64,000 nt of DNA from Eledone cirrhosa (taxonomy: Eukaryota). The position numbers and the translations under genes are program-made. Positions 4,112 to 25,248 of the stretch are shown here, one piece after another. The stretch covers positions 11,656,001-11,720,000 of the forward strand of contig OZ024740.1 of NCBI GenBank assembly GCA_964016885.1. The letters are read 5' to 3'. The notes under the pieces are model-generated. The model saw only the letters and a list, made by a program, of their open reading frames with translations. It was not told the origin of the DNA and did not search any database. Every line of letters begins with the position of its first letter. Position 1 is the first letter of the stretch.

Positions 4112-4148
4112 TTTCTGATGAAGGACTTATGTCCGAAACGTTGTAAAC
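4112..4148 (+). ncRNA. Minimal type I hammerhead ribozyme motif at the end of a degraded PLE-like pyrimidine-rich tract
   Basis: CTGATGA(4115-4121)-A-GGAC ttat GTCC-GAAAC-GTT-GTA. Palindromic AACGTT around stem III. Stem I is only 2 bp, so probably decayed. Confidence 0.65.
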
Positions 4149-4237
4149 AACCCCCCTCCACTCTCATTAAGCATGAAGATAATAACACTATGTACCATTG
4201 TTGTTTGTGTTGTTTGTCATTTTGAACTATATATATA

Positions 4238-13620: not shown

Positions 13621-14372
13621 TAATAAATAACTAATAATATATAATACATAAACTTATATAACTGTTAAAAATTTAAATAATAATAAGATATGCATACCTC
13701 ATTATTGCAGATAGCGGAAGTGAGAGATCGAGAAAGCAAATCATGAGGAAAGAGAGAAAAAGAAAGAGATTTGATCGTAGGAACAAAAGAAGGGAGAAAT
13801 GATCAAAGGATAGAGAGAAGAAATGAAAATAAGTTTAATAGTATAAACAAAGGGAGGAAGATATGCATTGTAATGTATAAATAGCGTATAATAAGATAGG
13901 GGGGGGGGGGGAGAGAATATCTAGGCATATGATGCGTGACCGTTTATTTTCAAATCTTAAGTTAATTAGAAATAGTCAATTAATCAAGTGACATAAGATT
14001 TTAGACTATAAAATTTGAAAGGATTTATATTATTGTATTATATCAGAGTTAAAGCAAATGTAACGTGAAAGAGATAAATTTATGTTTATCATAACTCCAA
14101 AGGTAATCACAAGTATATTTAAAAGTATATTAAAATTAAGAATATAATCAGAAAACATTAAAATTAAAATGTTATTAATAAACCATAAAGCATTATAAAT
14201 GTATTTAATAAGATATTATTAAACCAGATTTATCTAGATATACTCATTTGTATAATTTATATATAGACTATAAGGTTTAAGGTTTAAGACGATATTAGTC
14301 ACTTATATATAATATAATTACTGTTAAGAGTGTTATAAATTTGATTCAACTAGATGTTACTGTATTAAATTA

Positions 14373-14411
<39 letters not shown>

Positions 14412-14464
14412 AAATGGGGAGAAGAATACTGCAGGTTGCACATGGATAACATGTTATAAAATGA

Positions 14465-14565
14465 GTCCCTCATCAGTGATTTGCCAACGATCATAGATAT
14501 TTCATTGCATTAAAAATCATATACCTCACGTTGGTCCAATAATAACTAAATTAAGTTATTAGGAC
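14465..14565 (-). ncRNA. Candidate permuted/pseudoknotted hammerhead, copy C (core intact)
   Basis: GTCC-hairpin-TTGG-A-CCAACG-TG-AGGTA-TA/TGATTTT-TAAT-GCAA-T-GAAA-TATCT-ATGAT-CGTTGG-CAAATCA-CTGATGA-GGGAC. Confidence 0.7.
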
Positions 14566-14571
14566 ATATAT

Positions 14572-15468
14572 ATATATAATCAAGGTTTAGCAAATAAGAA
14601 AAAGTTTCAAAATAAATTTGTTTAAATTAACTTTACTTACTATGGTTACCTTTACCGAATCGGTTTCGAGTCTCAAAAATAAACGGAGTCCATACGGCAT
14701 CCGTTGCAAAGAAAAACACTCGTCAGAAGGATCTTTTCACTCAGAGAATATAAAATTCCCGAGTTCAAATTACGAACTGGCACTATTCAAAATTGTTCCC
14801 GAGATGAGAGTAAATGAAGTGGAAGCAATTCTTTCAAGTGCCGTGTGTAAAGATAAGAGGCGGAGACAAGGAGGTCAGTCGGCTCCCGCAGCAGTCAGCA
14901 CGACCAAATTTTTTTTCTCAACCAAGAGGAGAATAGTAATAATAGAGTATATGTTCCTACATGCACAAGGCGCTAAGGGACACATGTATTGTCCAACCAT
15001 ATGCCAATGTGGTTCAATGGCAGGTTAATAAATTAACGAGCCTATAGCGAAGATTCTGGGGTGTATGAATGTAACAAAACGAGACATGGTTTGTGTGTAT
15101 AATATTTAATTAACAATGGTAGATAGTATACTTGACATGTCAAAGATAGATGTTAGAATGAAACAAAGTTAGTAGTTACCGTTTTGATTGCCAGGCAAAC
15201 GCGGCTGGCAGAGGACGCCTGGCTAAGGCCAGGCGTCTGTTGGCCAAATGAATGGCGGAGCCCAATGAGAGGCTCTTGACCTGGTGCCGAAAAGGCAATG
15301 AGAGAAAGGAAGCTTAAAGTTGTTAGTTTTATAGGGCTCTGACCGGAAGTTGCAGAAAGGGTTCCACTTCCCGTCTAGATCCTAATCAAAACAAGGGAGA
15401 CAACCGCTACAAGCCAGAACATATATAATCAAGGTTTAGCAAATAAGAAAAAGTTTCAAAATAAATTT
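14572..15468. repeat. ~47-bp direct repeat (14572-14618 and 15422-15468) flanking ~800 bp of unique sequence
   Basis: TATATAATCAAGGTTTAGCAAATAAGAAAAAGTTTCAAAATAAATTT occurs twice. Confidence 0.9.
15070..15411 (-). mobile_element. Possible LTR-like sequence
   Basis: TGTA...TACA termini, TATAAAA (~15333) and ATTAAA (~15108) on the minus strand. No TSD or PBS recognised. Confidence 0.25.
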
Positions 15469-15538
15469 TAAATATATATATATATATATTGCGTTGCTAT
15501 CCTTCTATGTTTGTTTACTTGTCTCGCTCGCTTTACTT

Positions 15539-15640
15539 GTCCCAATAGCTTTATTTAGCTATTGCTCGCACCAACTGGAGGTATATGAATTTTAAAGCGA
15601 TGAAATACCAATGAAGGTTGGAAAATCAATGATGAAGGAC
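15539..15640 (+). ncRNA. Candidate permuted hammerhead, copy B (C3 to A, probably inactive)
   Basis: GTCC-CAATAGCT..AGCTATTG-C-TCGC-A-CCAACT-GG-AGGTA-TA/TGAATTT-TAAA-GCGA-T-GAAA-TACCA-ATGAA-GGTTGG-AAAATCA-ATGATGA-AGGAC. Confidence 0.6.
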
Positions 15641-15736
15641 TATTTTTATCATATGTAACCCATGTGCAACCTCGCAGTATTCATTCTTTTCATGTTTTTA
15701 TATATATATATATATATTTATTTATATATATATATA

Positions 15737-15817
15737 TCATCATCATCATCAGGTTTAGCGTCCGTGTTCCACGCTTGCATGGGTTTGGACGGGGGTTTTC
15801 CCACTTGAGGCAAGAGT
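15737..15817 (-). mobile_element. RTE family A, extreme 3' end
   Basis: Matches 25305-25390; (GAT)n tail within (TA)n. Confidence 0.8.
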
Positions 15818-15862
15818 AAATATATATATATATATATATATTTATTTATATATATATATATA

Positions 15863-15926
<64 letters not shown>

Positions 15927-16013
15927 TTATATATATATATATAAACAAGCAAATTATAAATGTAAACATGTAAGTATGTTGTTGAAACGGTGCGCGAGTT
16001 TGAAAATTAGAAA

Positions 16014-16243
16014 TTAGAAATTATAAGCTTTCACCGTATTTTAGACTAAAGAAATTTCTAGCCTGATAGTGGGGTTTATAACCCTCAGAGAAAAGGAAAA
16101 AGATGAGTGTTGCCGTACATCAGGCTAGAAATTTCTTTAGTCTAAAATACGGTGAAAGCTTATAATTTCTAAGTAAACAACATCTGATCCCTCTTATTTC
16201 TAAGGGAAAAATTAGAAATAAGAGGGATCAGATGTTGTTTACT
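16014..16243. repeat. Two adjacent inverted duplications at the 5' junction of an RTE insertion
   Basis: 16014-16067 pairs with 16119-16172 (54 bp). 16172-16203 pairs with 16212-16243 (32 bp, RTE sequence). Confidence 0.9.
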
Positions 16244-16957
16244 CGAGAGAAGGCTACGTTGGTATGGTCACGTGATGCGCATGAAAGACGACAGCTGTAT
16301 AAAAAAGTGCAGGGCAATAAAGATAGACGGTAGCCACGGAGTAGGCAAACCCAGAAAAATCTGGGACGACCTGATAAACTCCGACCTCACACACTTACAC
16401 CTCTCCAAGACAATGTCACTGGACCGAGACCTTTGGCGGCACTCAGTAATATAGAAGACCCGCCTTACCTAAATACAAAGTAAAACCTACTACAGTCAGT
16501 AGGCATCTCTAACAAAATACACCACCCCCACCCCATCCACACCGCCCCTTTCAATGTAAAGTTATGTTGGTGCCACAACATCCAGGCCGAAACAAATGAG
16601 ATCGTGTAGGTGTCACGACAAAAAAACAGACAGTCCACGCTGTAATGTGGCCGTGTAGGCAACACGGTAAAAACCTCCCAGTCGCACACTGTAAATGTGG
16701 TTGGTGTTAGGAAGGGCATCCAGCTGTAGAAAACCCGCCAGACAGTCCACGCTGTAATGTGGCCGTGTAGGTAACACGGTAAAAACCTCCCAGCCCCACA
16801 CTGTAAATGTGGTTGGTGTTAGGAAGGGCATCCAGCTGTAGAAAACTCGCCAGACAGTCCTATGCGAGCAAGACAACCACTCTTGCCTCAAGTGGGAAAA
16901 CTCCCGTCCAAACCCATGCAAGCGTGGAACATGGACGTTAAACGATGATGATGATGA
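16204..16957 (+). mobile_element. RTE family A, 3' fragment with a 112-bp internal tandem duplication in the 3' UTR
   Basis: ERRLRWYGHVMRMKDDSCIKKCRAIKIDG. (GAT)n tail. GACAGTCCACGCTGTAATG recurs at 16629 and 16741. Confidence 0.9.
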
Positions 16958-16975
16958 TATATTTATTTATATATA

Positions 16976-19365
16976 TATCCTAAACGGACGGTAGTCCGTT
17001 TAGTAATATTGTTGTGGTCGTGTTTTCGTTGGCAATCGTCTGTTTACGACAGTACAGCGCGGCTCTACTTTATTTAACTGAGATAAAACTTATATGAGCA
17101 TGAACAGTAGATCATTACGGATCTTTTGGCTTAAAAATCTAGAAATTTGGTCCAGCGGGAAAAAGTTTATAATCAAAGTTTGCTGATAAATCTTGTGTTC
17201 AAGTGAGTGAGTAGTAAGCGTGACGCTAGGGGAGGTAATCCAGAAATGACGACGTTTGGAAAAGTTTAATTACTGCATGAACGAAATGATTCAAAAATTG
17301 AACTTGCCCAATCTTCACAACATTGAAAATTGGTCAAAATTTGACAAATCTGACTTCAAACCAGATATGATTCATTTGAACAATGTTGGAAATCTTAAAT
17401 TGACACAAATTTTTGCCAATGTTTTTGCCACCTGATCCTTGTTCTATGGCTGACTGACTAATTTTGTGACTTAATAAAATGTCATCATATACTAGTAATG
17501 CACAATGGTCATTTTTAAATTTAAATTTTATTAAATAGTTGTTGCTTGCATTGCCTTAAAATAGTAACAAGAATGTACACATACTTTTTAAAAATACATC
17601 ATTATCAGTCAAATCAGTCAAATGTCACTAAAAGCCAGGTAGTCGATAACAACTTCTATAAGATTAGTTACATGCTCACACATTGGACCACCTCTCATCA
17701 ATGGCATTGGGTGTCTGAGATAATCGTGGAGATAACTGATGAAGTCACAAATGAAGTGATGGTCTTCCAGCGTGAACAACTCCCTATATCCATTGATATA
17801 TGTGATGGCTTCCGATTCATAGGTGCATTTTATGAGGAATTCCATGCATCCGATTTTCAGTGATTCAATGGGCATTTTATCAGAGATGATAAGGTATTTG
17901 ACCACGTTTTGCTTTGTAAGTAAATTGGAGAGAATCACTGCAGTCAAAGTCATTTCTTTGCATGGGTTTTTGTCCATTCTAAAAAGTTAAAATGATAAAG
18001 TATTACTACTATATAACTTACATCTATTGTTGTAACACCATTGAAATGCACAAGTTTCACCAATTCACTATTATGCACTAATCATCTCAAATGCATTCAT
18101 GATTTACTAGCTTTGTCATTAAGCCAGTTGCCTCAACTAGATTGCAATTATACTCAAAAGAACTTTAAAATGTCAATCACTTGTCAGTAATTCACTATGA
18201 TCATTTAATTATTAGATAGTTGTTGCTTGCATTGCCTTAAAAAATAGTAGACCAGATAGAAAAATGCGTACAGCAAAAAAAAGTAATATTGTTGGAATAT
18301 AAACCTTTAAAAATACAGGACAAGAAACTAAAATAAAACTTTAAAAGAATAGGACAAGAAACTAAGATAAAACTTTAAAAGAAGAGGACAAGAAACTAAG
18401 ATAAAACTTTAAAGAATTGGACAAGAAATAAAAAATTTTACAATAATATTAGTGGCAAAATTTTTTTATTCGTTTCCTGTGCTATGCCCCAGTATCTTCT
18501 TGATTAGTGCATAATAATTGTCATGCTCTCATTGTGCGTTGCCCCTGAGCGGTTGGTTCTGGTTGGGGTTGGTTGGCTGAGCAGTTCTGCTCCGTCAGAA
18601 TGACCATTGCAAGAAGAATTGGCCGATGCAGCTGCAGGTCTCCAAGAATGCACTTCTGGTCCCGCAACACCAGACGAAGATGGAGAAGACGACCGGGACA
18701 AGATGTCGACTCTGACCACCGACTACGGCACCTCCCTCAACCACCGGTCCTCCCTCCCTCTGTCCCGTCATCCCTCCAGTCCTCCTGCTCCCCCTTCCTG
18801 TACCAGAAAGCTGTGGCACGCATTCATCTGGACTGTCAAGGACAAGATGCAAGGAGAAGATGGACGGGTTGGTCAAGATCAAGGATGAGCGGGACGACAA
18901 GACCGTCCGCTGCTGCTCAAGATCTGTGCTCATGGGCCCATGGGTCCATTCACATTATGCATGACACATGAGGTGTGTCACCGAATGATGAAATAGGGGT
19001 ATGGTTATGGCCCAATTGGTGTTCAAACCAGGATCAAATGATCCCACCGGTCTGACGACGACCTCTGAATGTGGAACCCAGAGCCTATGAATGTGGAACT
19101 CGATTTTTTACCAATAAAAATTTTGCCACTAATATTATTGTAAAATTTTTTATTTCTTGTCCAATTCTTTAAAGTTTTATCTTAGTTTCTTGTCCTATTC
19201 TTTTAAAGTTTTATCTTAGTTTCTTGTCCTATTCTTTTAAAGTTTTATCTTAGTTTCTTGTCCTATTCTTTTAAAGTTTTATTTTAGTTTCTTGTCCTGT
19301 ATTTTTAAAGGTTTATATTCCAACAATATTACTTTTTTTTGCTGTACGCATTTTTCTATCTGGTA
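16976..19365 (-). mobile_element. Inverted second copy of the 7665-11296 element with a ~1.27-kb internal deletion
   Basis: 16976-17252 matches the reverse complement of 11224-10948, then jumps to 9677 and continues through both ORFs and the fold-back module. Confidence 0.9.
17618..17977 (-). CDS. Second copy of the BACK-like ORF (119 aa)
   Basis: Near-identical to 8958-9314, with one in-frame codon insertion and a few substitutions. Confidence 0.45.
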   Translation of the reverse strand: MDKNPCKEMTLTAVILSNLLTKQNVVKYLIISDKMPIESLKIGCMEFLIKCTYESEAITYINGYRELFTLEDHHFICDFISYLHDYLRHPMPLMRGGPMCEHVTNLIEVVIDYLAFSDI

Positions 19366-19498
19366 TATTTATTTATATATATATATATTTATTTATATAT
19401 ATATATATATTTAATGGAAAAATTTGAACAGGAACAAAACAGAGAGGCAGTACAACGAATGTTTATTATATATATATATATTTATTTATATATATATA

Positions 19499-19543
<45 letters not shown>

Positions 19544-19644
19544 ATTTATTTATATATATATATATTTATTTATATATATATATATTTATATATATATATA
19601 TATATTTATATATATTTATATATATATTTATATATATTTATATA

Positions 19645-19691
<47 letters not shown>

Positions 19692-19902
19692 AATAACTAG
19701 AAATTGATTAACATTTATTTATATATATATATATTACTAGAAATTGATTAACATTTATTTATATATATATATATTAATTTATATATATATATATATATTA
19801 ATTTATATATATATATATATATTAATTTATGTATATATATATATTTATTTATGTATATATATATATTTATTTATATATATATATTTATATATATATATAT
19901 AT

Positions 19903-21412
19903 CAACATCATCATCATCATTTAACGTCCACCTTCCACGCTTGCATGGGTTTGGATGGGAGTTTTCCCATGTGAAGCAAGATTGGTTGTCCTGCTCGTAT
20001 AGGACTGTCTGGCGGGTTTTCTACGGCTGGATGCCCTTCCTAACACCAACCACGTTTACAGTGTGGACTGGGAGGTTTTTACCGTGTTACCTACACGGCC
20101 ACATTACAGCGTGGACTGTGTGTTTTTTTTTGTCGTGACACCTACACGACCTCATTCGTTTCGGACTGGATGTTATGGTACCAACATAACTTCACATTTA
20201 AGGGGGTGGTGTGGATGGGGTGAGGATAGTGGGACGGGGTGTATTTTGTTAGAGGTGCCTACTGACTGTAGGTTTCACTTTGTACTTAGGTAAGGCGGGT
20301 CTTCTGTATGACTGTGTCGCACCAGAGATCTCGGTCCACTGACATTGTCTTGGAGAGGTGTAAGTGTGTGAGGTTGGAATTTATCAAGTGGTCCCAAGTT
20401 TTTCTGGGTCTGCCTACTCCGTGGCTGCCGTCTATTTTTATCGCCCTGCACTTTTTTATACACCTGTCGTCTTCCATGCGCATCACGTGACCATACCAAC
20501 GTAATCTTCTCTCGAGTAAACAACATCTGATCCCTCTTATTTCTAATTACTCCCTTAGTTCGTTTATGCTTTGCTGTTCACGTATATTACTATTACACAT
20601 CGTTTCTCTCCAGTCTGCGTATTTCCTCTGAACACAATGCCCAGGTCTCACTGCTATGTAACATTGCTATTCGTATGCAGACATCATACAGCCTGCCTTG
20701 CATTTTTAGAGAGAACCCTTTAGCAGCTAATAGTGGTATAAGCTCTCTGAACTTTTTCCATCCCGTTCTGACTCTAGCTACTGTACTTTCAGAGCACCCT
20801 CCCCCACTGCTGATTTTGTCACCCAGGTAACGGAAGCTGTCCACTATTTCTATAGAACCATCTGTGCAATGGAATGAGCTAGTATTCTGTGGGCACTTGC
20901 TACTACTTATTGCACCAGAGCACCGGCCACATGTAAAATCTATGTTCTTAGTTAGCTTACCTGTGATCCCACTACATCTTTTATGCACTCATACTTTTAT
21001 GCACTCATACATTTGGGACATAAAATGGAGTTTCTACCTGCGCCTTTCATACACACTGAGCATGGCCATTTCCCGGAAGGGACCGTCGCCTTATTTTCTT
21101 TCCTACAAACTAGAACTTTAGTCTTAGCCAGGTTAATTTTAAGGCCTTTTGATTCTAGGCCGTGCTTCCATGTTTGGAATTTCTTCTCTAGCTCGGCCAT
21201 TGATACAGCTATGAGCGTTAGATCATCTGCGTATAGGAGTTCCCATGGGCAGCCGGTCTTGAACTCCACTGTTATAGCCTTAAGGGCAATAATAAATAGT
21301 AGGGGGCTAAGAACAGAGCCCTGATGAACACCAACTTTTACACTAAACTCTTCACTATATTCGTTGTTAATTCTAACCTTGCTGACTGTTTCTTTATACA
21401 TGGCTTGTATAG

Positions 21413-21420
<8 letters not shown>
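19903..21420 (-). mobile_element. RTE family A, 5'-truncated, degenerate
   Basis: GVHQGSVLSP, ELLYADDL, PHD-like Cys/His cluster, VDSFRYLG. Frameshifts present. (GAT)n tail; (TA)n on both sides. Confidence 0.93.
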
Positions 21421-21443
<23 letters not shown>

Positions 21444-21453
21444 GAAAAAGTAA

Positions 21454-21555
21454 GTCCTTCATCAGTGACCCTCCAACTGTCCCAGGTATTTCATCGCTTT
21501 AAGGGCCATATGCCTCAGGTTGGTGCGAACAACGGCTAAAAAAAGTCGTTGGGAC
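21454..21555 (-). ncRNA. Candidate permuted hammerhead, copy D
   Basis: Same as copy A except for two stem mismatches (TACCT, AGTTGG). Predicted cleavage between 21509 and 21508. Confidence 0.65.
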
Positions 21556-22125
21556 ACGTAAATAAAGGGGACGTTAGGGTAACAAACAAAATGGTTTAAG
21601 CAACGGAAGGTGAGAAGAAATAGACAAGTCCCAGATCTCTATGAATATAAACTCGGTGAAATCGTGAACAAGAGACAAAAGACCATCAAACCTGGTTGAA
21701 ATGTGAGCAAGGAAGGAATTTCGCACAAGTCTAACGGGGGGAAGAAGAAGAAGAAGGGGTCTAGTCTATGAATTCGGTAAACATAAGTTTTGTGAAGTCG
21801 CAGACGAAAGAGAGAGAGAGAGAGAAAAAAATTCCATACCAGCTTGACCAAGAACGCGCGAGAAAAGAATTACACACAGGTCAAATTTGAAGGAGGATGA
21901 GGAAAGAGGAGGAGGAGAGGTAGTGACAGAGAATGAGTGAGTGAAAGTGGAGGAGGAGGCTAACAGAGAGAGAGACTGCTAGAAAGGGTAAAAGGTACAA
22001 AGAACGAGAAAGGGTAAAAGGTACAAAGAACGAAACAGACGGGTAGCAGCAGAAGAAAAAGTATGTGTAAATATGATAATAATGATGGCTGCGCGTTGCA
22101 AATGGTGGTGCATATGAAAAAGTAA

Positions 22126-22183
22126 GTCCTTCATCAGTGACCCTCCAACCGTCCCAGGCATTTCATCGCTTTAAGGGCCATAT
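22126..22183 (-). ncRNA. Candidate permuted hammerhead, copy E: 3' part only, starting at the predicted cleavage site
   Basis: (ATA)TGGCCCT-TAAA-GCGA-T-GAAA-TGCCT-GGGAC-GGTTGG-AGGGTCA-CTGATGA-AGGAC. Homology to the full motif stops at 22181-22183. Confidence 0.65.
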
Positions 22184-22245
22184 CTTCTCACCTTCCGTTG
22201 CTTAAACCATTTTGTTTGTTACCCTAACGTCCCCTTTATTTACGT

Positions 22246-22347
22246 GTCCCAACGACTTTTTTTAGCCGTTGTTCGCACCAACCTGAGGCATATGGCCCTT
22301 AAAGCGATGAAATGCCTGGGACGGTTGGAGGGTCACTGATGAAGGAC
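22246..22347 (+). ncRNA. Candidate permuted/pseudoknotted hammerhead, copy A (best preserved)
   Basis: GTCC-hairpin-TCGC-A-CCAACC-TG-AGGCA-TA(22292)/TGGCCCT-TAAA-GCGA-T-GAAA(22309-12)-TGCCT-GGGAC-GGTTGG-AGGGTCA-CTGATGA(22336-42)-A-GGAC. Confidence 0.75.
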
Positions 22348-22395
22348 TTACTTTTTCATATGCACCACCATTTGCAACGCGCAGCCATCATTATT

Positions 22396-22463
<68 letters not shown>

Positions 22464-22537
22464 TATATATATATATTTATATATATATATTTATATATAT
22501 ATATATTTATATATATATATATTTACATATATATATA

Positions 22538-23075: not shown

Positions 23076-25195
23076 GTTAATTTGTATTCCAATGTTACTA
23101 AGTAGTTGCATTGGATGGAGTCAACTGACGTCAGAGATTGCTCAACGTATAATAAAGTGTGTTTTAAAATCCGGAGAAAATATGGAGAAAAAATTTACGA
23201 AATGGAAATGCGGGTATATAGAATTTATTAGGTAACAATTGTTTCTATAGTGTATGGGTTACCTATACCTCGCTATTTGAATAATACACAAATATTATCA
23301 TAAACCGAAGGTACACTGTAAGCCAACACACCATGTCATCAGACCTTTGTATTAGAATGATATGAAAATATTTTATACACTAGATAAAAGATAAAGAAGG
23401 AGGTAGGAAGAGAAGGGGAAGAGGGAAGTGAGTAAGGTGGAGGGAGTCTTAGGATTTAAGACTGTCAGACTAGTAGAGATTGTGAAGAGAGATTGTTTTG
23501 GCAGCAGTTAGCTTAATGAGGCGTGCTAAGTTTGGCTGGGAAGTAGATTCTTCTAGTGGTGTTGTTCGGACAAAATTTAGTTAAAGGGGTCAAAGTGGTA
23601 CAGTGTCACAGACAAGTTATTAGGGCTATTATAGTAGCAGGTTATTTCTAAAGGGGTCCAGAAAAACAGTGTTTAGTACTATTATTATAGAAAGCCATAT
23701 CTTGTGTATAAACATATAAGACAGAAATTTGCAAACGTTGGTGTAAAAACGTAACATTATATGCATTTAAAAAAAGAAAAAGTCGTCGTTTTCAAACGAT
23801 GGTTACAGTATAGAGAACGTTCAATTTTGCTGTTCAAAAGTTTGTTTACCGACGTTAAAATGCAGTATATCTCTAAATTGCATAACGTGCAGAGTCGATG
23901 ATTTTGCTGATATGCAGGCGCAGCTGCAATAATATGCCAATCAAGGGAGAACGCTTGATTGTTCCTCCGAAGCTGCCAGGCTTTATCGGCGAGGGTTGTT
24001 ACGGAGCGCATTTTCTCGTACCTGATCGAAGATCGATGTTGGTATAGGCGAGCCTTGAAAGAAGTTGCGGTACATCCGACGTAATACCATTTGTTGGTCC
24101 CGGAATTTATTGTACACCGGTAGACAATATTGCGTGCTAGGCACTGGTTATTCAGTGGGCACGTACCTGGTTTGGTGCAGTTACAACTATTTTTATGTTT
24201 TGCAGTAGAATCCTGGATAGTTTGGTGGGGTTGTGGTTGCGTGTTAGTGCGTTGTATGTTGCTATGCTGGTGCGCTGAGTCATTAGGGATGTACTTATTC
24301 AGTATTGCTGAGTTGAGTTTTCTAATTAGTTATTCTATGTTAGGTGCAGTGGAGTATGAGAGTCTAATGGTGCGCGAGTTAAAGATTTTATAGTATTTAT
24401 GTGAAGTTGTAAAGTGTTTATTGATTAGTGTATAGAATTGTGAGATAATCTTAGTGCTAATAGAAGAATTGTACATGGGGTTATACCATATGTACTCTCT
24501 ACGTCTGACTCTATTTGCTGGTTTGCACCTGTTAGTATGCCTATTGATGTGTGTGTGTGGTGCAATACTAGTTCGACTTAGATGTGTTTTATTCATAGTA
24601 CTTATGTGGTTATCGTCTAGATATTCAATTTTCTCGCAGTAACCAGCTTTTCTAAGTGCGTCATTATAATATTCAGCATGCTCGTTGAAGGTCTGAAAAT
24701 TAGACGACAGTCGGGAGATCCTTATGGATATATTTTTAGGGATAGATTTAATAATGGAATGAGGATGGTTCGATTTTACATTAACGTACTTAAGATTTTC
24801 GTTAAGTTTGTGAAATGGCTCTATATTACCGTTATTAAGGTTAAAGGTAACATCCAAGAAGTTGACCACCTTAAGATTGTGTTCGAAGGTAATATTAAGC
24901 CCTAGTTCTAAGAAAAGTTTCCTAATGTTTTTACGTCGCCTTTCTAGGTTTTGTTTGTTCATATTCTTGACTAATAGAAGTGTATCGTCGCGGTATATTC
25001 CGCCGTGGAGGTCCGTAAATTCGCTCTGGAGTCTATGGGCTATATAGATCCCAACCAAATCCATGACCTCCGCCGAATCATTAGAACCCATCGTAATGTC
25101 GAATTCCGAGGGTCTATCCCTGCGGACCCAATAACTATTTTCAAAGTGCACTACTGTGCGTCTAGCTTCAAGTATAATATTAATTTCCTCGTAAA
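23075..25195 (-). mobile_element. 5'-truncated Penelope-like retroelement (RT, GIY-YIG endonuclease, 3' pLTR)
   Basis: RT motifs ITMGSNDSAE, YRDD, VNFLDVTFNL, SNHP. After one in-frame stop (24330-24332) the same frame continues CNC..CPLNNQCL, IVY...YVG, RLYQH, CTLCNLE to 23757. Confidence 0.93.
23230..23346 (-). ncRNA. Type I hammerhead with a greatly extended stem II in the PLE 3' region
   Basis: AGGT-CTGATGA-CATGGTGTGT...ATACACTATA-GAAAC-AATT-GTT/ACCT. Palindromic AACAATTGTT. The first stem II pair is a C-A mismatch. Confidence 0.7.
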
Positions 25196-25248
25196 TTTTT
25201 TCTCTCTATATATATATATAAATATTTATATATATATATATATATAAA

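Follow-up and report, generated by a model that had tools for sequence, protein, structure and literature searches.

A putative hammerhead ribozyme of S-G-C strand order with a rewired stem II in retroelements of Eledone cirrhosa and in Naiad Penelope-like elements

Hammerhead ribozymes of types I, II, and III carry their core blocks, the CUGAnGA strand (C), the GAAA strand (G), and the strand with the UH cleavage site (S), in the circular order C-G-S. In type SGC, which was identified in metatranscriptomes and validated by core and compensatory mutants, the hammerhead is split into blocks in the order S, G, C (HRIMA-1 and SGC variants; PMC10085705). As described there, SGC ribozymes cleave during transcription, compensatory changes rescue their stems, and some have 0-nt linkers; the published descriptor and alignments place stem II, followed by the stem I-II interaction helix (I-II helix), directly after CUGAnGA, and Eckert et al. 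(2023) assumed CUGAnGA and its neighboring stems to be inseparable (PMC10085705). Here we analyze a motif of S-G-C order that recurs in a 64,000-nt stretch of the Eledone cirrhosa genome (GCA_964016885.1, contig OZ024740.1, positions 11,656,001–11,720,000, forward strand; hereafter the window), and compare it with motifs in the Naiad group of Penelope-like elements (PLEs).

Naiads are described as targeting (TA)n and lacking canonical hammerheads; 10 “HHR_core” and 8 “HHR_half_core” cases were reported with no fold given, and Craig et al. (2021) took the absence of hammerheads as a hint of dispensable passengers (PMC8557442). Animal non-LTR (long terminal repeat) retrozymes are tandem arrays of non-coding units, each with a single hammerhead, that derive from PLE pseudo-LTRs, much as the units described below would; they are defined by type I hammerheads, and their descriptors would not match the S-G-C order (bioRxiv 10.64898/2026.07.22.740005). 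We consider it very likely that the window motif is a self-cleaving hammerhead of SGC order with further rewiring, and that many Naiad PLEs carry it as their 3′ (pseudo-LTR) ribozyme. A rewired S-G-C fold in Naiads would explain their published lack of canonical hammerheads, and so bears on an open retroelement question, that of Naiads without canonical hammerheads and with unexplained half cores (PMC8557442).

Wiring and pairing of the motif

Among the window copies only copy A (22246–22347, + strand), a complete motif with a sequence typical of its family, fits its family form; all 40 genome matches that were scored, on five contigs, agree with it at every one of 121 nt (100%). It opens with the 5′ strand of helix P1 (22246–22249), whose pairing with 22344–22347 clamps the two ends together, followed by the P2 hairpin (22250–22271), which has four of its eight pairs changed on both sides and forms an arm of a four-way junction, by a stem II strand (22273–22276, partner 22304–22307), and by the 5′ strand of the I-II helix (22278–22283, partner 22323–22328), the counterpart of helix “I” in PMC10085705. 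Block S (22286–22299) comprises a stem III strand, U16.1-A17, the predicted cut at 22292/22293 (after AUA, as placed by the register), and a stem I strand; block G (22304–22317) comprises the second stem II strand, U11.1, GAAA, and a stem III strand; and the last segment (22329–22343) holds the other stem I strand, CUGAUGA (22336–22342), and the purine after A9. Read 5′ to 3′, the order is P1, P2 hairpin, stem II strand, I-II helix strand, stem III, UH cut, stem I, stem II′, GAAA, stem III′, I-II helix′, stem I′, CUGAnGA, P1′.

An earlier, sequence-only reading of this DNA had placed five copies, a core in hammerhead register, and a reversed cyclic order (NUH, GAAA, CUGAUGA) with crossing helices. 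All five copies lie on the strands and at the positions it gave, each helix that it quoted is in the sequence, the core fits hammerhead numbering, and the reversed order with its crossing helices holds. Its belief that no natural example had been described does not stand, because type SGC is described and validated (PMC10085705), and it missed both the host element and the new feature, a stem II supplied by the 5′ strand. Between the strand after CUGAnGA and the strand before GAAA, 0–1 contiguous bp form in 17 of 17 motifs, so block C is not uninterrupted as in type SGC, whose published descriptor needs a stem II of at least 3 bp (PMC10085705). Whereas type SGC has stem II and the I-II partner 3′ of CUGAnGA (PMC10085705), the window motif draws both from a 5′ strand that forms stem II and continues into the I-II helix, and it adds P1 and P2, the bases after CUGAnGA pairing with the 5′ end as P1.

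As read from the pairing, the strand after A9 runs off into an additional helix, and a four-way junction results. On this pairing, the SGC topology has been cut open at A9-10.1 and closed again by a link between the I-II helix and stem III, which amounts to a circularly permuted version of the published SGC form; the chain would be broken at or beside the A9-10.1 step, and the four-way junction would clamp the break. The order itself being already known, the motif is best filed as an SGC-order variant with stem II from the 5′ strand, in Naiad pseudo-LTRs. We think it probable, with slightly more reserve than above, that this is an active hammerhead in which the core strand is interrupted between A9 and G10.1 and held by a four-way junction, that it is old and widespread in Naiads of several animal phyla, and that it lies outside the six-permutation scheme of Eckert et al.; it would then be the first non-circularly permuted ribozyme family at high copy in animal genomes.

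Type SGC is known, from what is published in PMC10085705, in metatranscriptomes only, whereas the window motif occurs in animal genomic retroelements in more than 10,000 copies; a non-circular RNA permutation is hence moved from unassigned metatranscriptome contigs into animal genomes. The assumption of an inseparable CUGAnGA and stem II is broken, and because the two are separable the hammerhead search space becomes wider. The variant also offers a possible route between permutations, and GC-rich, compact natural constructs for structure work.

Rfam 15 gave no matches at the gathering threshold across the whole window, and no Rfam hammerhead was matched at loose E-values in 14300–22500 or in 20 of the 30 Naiad loci described below. 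As had been foreseen, standard models miss the motif, which matches no catalogued hammerhead model and has neither the C-G-S circular order nor the Rfam match that characterize types I, II, and III. A hammerhead split at A9-10.1 was not met in passages of PMC3088659 and PMC11300833. Among open PMC and bioRxiv full texts, a scope outside which subscription papers and ZWD fall, the Eckert paper was the sole return for SGC or non-circularly permuted hammerheads, and nothing linked Naiads with a permuted hammerhead.

Pairing was scored in 19 representatives hand-picked from seven sub-families, the rows of which are related. Of 703 cells, 92.5% were paired (28–44% in slid-partner controls), and 41 cells carried two-sided changes against a shuffled mean of 15.1, a count that none of 500 shuffles reached. 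The covariation claimed from the sequence is borne out in this respect and falls short in two others: P1 shows none within the E. cirrhosa genome, covarying only among the Naiad relatives, and “further pair types,” one of five measures, was not above shuffles (416/500). Stems I and III are in register with the core and covary, as do the stem II pair 29-61 and P2 in the E. cirrhosa representatives; the outer pairs of stem III (5/19) and stem II (7/19) are mostly open. The CUGAnGA, GAAA, and UH core is present throughout, a C3 change in copy B excepted, although its invariance in genome copies follows in part from the pattern with which they were searched for. In the E. cirrhosa families H17 is A or C, and it is A, C, or U in 11 Naiad families (the descriptor itself excludes G), in which N7 also varies. 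The monomers of five families are 72–86% alike in the ribozyme and 73–85% in the remainder, and the motif is therefore preserved through pairing more than through sequence.

Association with Naiad elements

Starting from a decayed Naiad reverse transcriptase (RT) in the E. cirrhosa genome, full-length Naiad-type proteins were retrieved, and through these 30 metagenome loci, 26 of which extended at least 150 nt past the match. With a threshold of at least 8 bp for stems I and III together, the S-G-C fold was found in 12 of the 26 Naiad 3′ untranslated regions (UTRs) and a canonical hammerhead in none; at the same threshold, antisense strands, open reading frame (ORF) stretches, and 30 shuffles all gave 0. 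Because stems I and III had selected the hits, the 5′ strand is an independent test. It gives P1 (4–13 bp), stem II, and the I-II helix (5–11 bp) in the same order in 12 of 12 motifs, and in each its score beats 200 of 200 shuffles (0/200 as good). In 11 of these motifs the automatic parse opens stem II with a pair between C11.1 and G10.1 of the 5′ strand; the remaining motif fits when read by eye. After A9 the base is variable (C, G, U, or A). The A-U or G-U pair 10.1-11.1 proposed earlier can indeed form between the purine after A9 and U11.1 in 19 of 19 E. cirrhosa rows, but in the Naiad relatives position 10.1 is a G on the 5′ strand.

The carriers represent 11 families, not 12, because the motif of L286 equals that of L275; their RT identity is 37–70%, and they are spread across the tree (the long branch of L286 probably comes from a wrong frame). 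Several, including L260, L265, L268, L269, L271, L277, and others, have an autonomous Naiad ORF with GIY-YIG, DKA, and RT. The window elements share with published Naiads their (TA)n targets and their partial tandem and inverted arms (PMC8557442). Naiads encode protein, whereas the window elements encode none, and no ORF combining an N-terminal GIY-YIG, DKA, and RT was found in the window units.

The same layout was recognized at published Naiad 3′ ends, in a comparison made by eye over part of the supplement of PMC8557442 rather than as a census: in Acropora (three near-identical), a cubozoan, Clytia, a rotifer-group element, an ostracod, and two Octopus species, and less cleanly in a ctenophore and in Euprymna. 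A spider Naiad has the S-G-C order with a simple stem II. In several nematode Naiads the 3′ end carries a hammerhead of canonical order whose stem II is long (File S5, by eye). The published Octopus Naiad motif and family E of this genome have, again by eye, the same P2 loop and the same 6-nt linker following stem III′, a likeness that suggests descent from a Naiad; a 19-nt motif of the published Octopus Naiad is absent from the E. cirrhosa genome.

Some Naiad 3′ UTRs hold other structures. One without CUGAnGA (L257:3076-3135, + strand) has a type-P5 twister-like match of 28.7 bits (gathering threshold 37.6, E 0.058), and its tree neighbors L260 and L261 have the SGC form, which suggests that ribozyme classes swap in the Naiad 3′ slot. 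The related Naiads L262 (1246–1712) and L263 (2436–2792) have in common a conserved 3′ UTR that looks structured but contains no hammerhead core and matches nothing in Rfam, and that is a candidate for another ribozyme. A partial match to signal recognition particle (SRP) RNA lies upstream of the Naiad ORF in L261 (347–487, + strand; 42 bits, gathering threshold 70, E 1.9e-07). Two apparent associations were set aside: the L256 motif belongs to an insertion of its own, about 1.2 kb away from a Naiad relic, and loci with motifs about 2.9 kb apart hold an unrelated PLE on the other strand. A scan of viral contigs for Naiads returned none.

Host insertions, predicted cleavage, and alternative explanations

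A pattern for the GAAA-to-CUGAUGA half of the motif matched 10,518 times (5277 + 5241) in the 3.0-Gb genome, a genome-wide collection of the kind that the sequence-only reading had called for; the reversed control matched 0 + 0 times, and the motif is therefore not due to chance. It recurs every 445–806 nt (65 spacings, overlapping loci included) in non-coding, pyrimidine-rich tandem units, up to nine of which are consecutive. L155:1-7501 is an array of at least nine tandem family A units. The insertions are 5′-truncated, mostly flanked by (TA)n, and frequently have an inverted arm. Of 136 3′ ends, 99 lie +113 to +125 from the predicted cut, in an AT-rich stretch within the unit (BLAST overshoots by a few bases). 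Truncation, (TA)n, inverted arms, and fixed 3′ ends are traits of PLEs, and together with the non-coding partial tandems they are those of non-autonomous Penelope-like elements and retrozymes; the type I hammerhead of retrozymes is absent from each unit, which holds the S-G-C form. Pieces of the window element, motif included, also occur in a second organism.

We propose that the motif survives in E. cirrhosa in non-autonomous units of 0.45–0.8 kb, which would derive from Naiads and be copied via RNA into (TA)n. Read-through RNA of tandem units would fold and cut after AUA or AUC (AUH), the cut setting many template 5′ ends. A PLE protein would prime at nicked (TA)n and, as demonstrated in vitro with another PLE (PMC11167929), initiate reverse transcription within the unit; synthesis would begin at a fixed internal site about 110–125 nt 3′ of the cut and pass through uncleaved or re-ligated ribozyme.

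The 5′ ends of insertions give indirect support for cleavage. In a position-ordered sample of 70 arms (two duplicate loci, two running off the locus edge, and one misaligned were dropped, and one was set by eye), five begin within −3 to +1 of the predicted cut, 5.8-fold over baseline (p 0.0025, or 0.014 if the head-to-head junction L157:1140-1200, both arms of which start at the predicted cleavage site, is counted once); −50 to −4 is not enriched. A separate tally of best-hit loci, possibly biased, gave 6.3-fold (80 of 82 rows, two being dropped for internal indels). Among the first 100 rows of the junction pattern, inspected by eye and including duplicates from segmental copies, 17 TA junctions fall from about −4 to +11 vs. 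1 from −5 to −19.

A number of results weigh against the reading of an active Naiad-derived ribozyme. The enrichment at +2 to +60 is only 2-fold (p 0.056, 70 arms), most 5′ ends lie elsewhere, many copies span the cut, and junction counts are open to bias from TA microhomology. Cleavage by the hammerhead of another PLE proved dispensable in vitro, with no ends of its RNA mapping to the cut (PMC11167929). The nested minimum free energy of copy A is unremarkable (z −0.27), as computed by a program that cannot model these pseudoknots, and in three of the five genome families, each taken alone, the 5′-strand score is non-significant against 200 shuffles (32, 34, and 18 as good), the stems there being therefore weaker than in Naiads. 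Fourteen of the 26 Naiad UTRs are without the motif, and a relaxed core found nothing in them. No intact Naiad or other autonomous element with the motif was found in the E. cirrhosa genome: the Naiad protein-motif pattern matched one decayed relic, a protein word search with that relic gave no matches, the Naiad matches present are decayed and broken, with 3′ flanks that lack the motif (relics too decayed for a comparison of shared 3′ sequence), and intact 775-aa DKG-type PLE ORFs are without it.

To the sequence-only reading a 2-nt linker had looked sterically tight for a monomer, and it had raised an obligate dimer; in its wider form, activity only as a domain-swapped dimer or between adjacent tandem units, so that one copy lends its 5′ strand to complete the core of a second, this seems to us unlikely. 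Minimal PLE hammerheads are reported to function as dimers, and the copies here are often in tandem. On one strand only 2–3 nt connect the I-II helix to stem III, although the hammerhead structure holds these ends well apart (PMC10085705). SGC ribozymes with 0-nt links at this place nevertheless cleave in transcription and are rescued by compensatory pairs (PMC10085705), and the evidence does not demand an obligate dimer. No palindromic stem is required here, and P1 clamps both ends of one chain; in Naiads short linkers accompany long I-II helices (0 nt with 8–11 bp), and helix plus shorter linker never falls below about 8 nt, as a single-chain span would need. We infer a monomeric fold.

That the fold persists as a signal for binding or packaging by a retrotransposon protein, or is a decaying relic, with little or no cleavage, we judge distinctly improbable. 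Damaging changes in three of the four full window copies, the many insertions spanning the cut, the in vitro dispensability noted above (PMC11167929), and the existence of Naiads without the motif are in its favor. Yet catalytic nucleotides are kept in families 72–86% alike (in part because of how the copies were selected) and in Naiads 37–70% alike in protein, 5′ ends are enriched at the cut, and a Naiad without the motif has the twister-like match, below threshold, instead. An ordinary type-SGC hammerhead with a 1-bp stem II and accessory 5′ helices is highly improbable. In its favor, U11.1 has a possible partner in the purine after A9 in 19 of 19 rows, and P1 lacks covariation within the E. 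cirrhosa genome. Against it, covariation is seen there for the stem II pair 29-61 and for P2, and in the Naiad motifs the base after A9 is variable and, in 11 of 12 automatic parses, C11.1 faces a G10.1 that lies on the 5′ strand.

Other window copies and neighboring features

Copies A, D, and E form a single composite insertion rather than three independent copies. A 5′-truncated arm with copy A (22180–22402, + strand, ends approximate) lies head to head with an inverted arm (21441–22183, − strand) that comprises partial copy E (22126–22183), of which only the 3′ part is present, starting 3 nt upstream of the predicted cut, a single non-coding unit of 672 nt, and copy D (21454–21555), with mismatches in stem III and the extra helix; (TA)n stands at the end of each arm. 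Copies B and C are members of other young families. A truncated family B element (15490–15699, + strand) contains copy B (15539–15640), in which C3 is changed to A, a position unchanged in family B itself, and which is probably inactive. A truncated family C element (14408–14566, − strand) contains copy C (14465–14565), with a substitution within the stem II strand.

A canonical type I hammerhead of another PLE family lies at 4115–4160 (+ strand), with the order C, G, S, a hairpin stem II, and the same core; it has 15 nt from CUGAUGA onward in common with copy A, which may reflect chance or exchange between families. A GIY-YIG-like frame (23757–24329, + strand) beside an RT-like frame (24330–25205, − strand) makes up what we take to be fragments of another Penelope-like element (23757–25205). 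RT fragments resembling those of long interspersed nuclear elements (20593–21458, − strand) adjoin the (TA)n run beside copy D. At 16015–16243, two long inverted repeats, both near-perfect, lie next to each other and have microRNA-like hairpin scores below threshold, and a 33-bp satellite of about 868 copies, with 93% matches, occupies 35712–64000.

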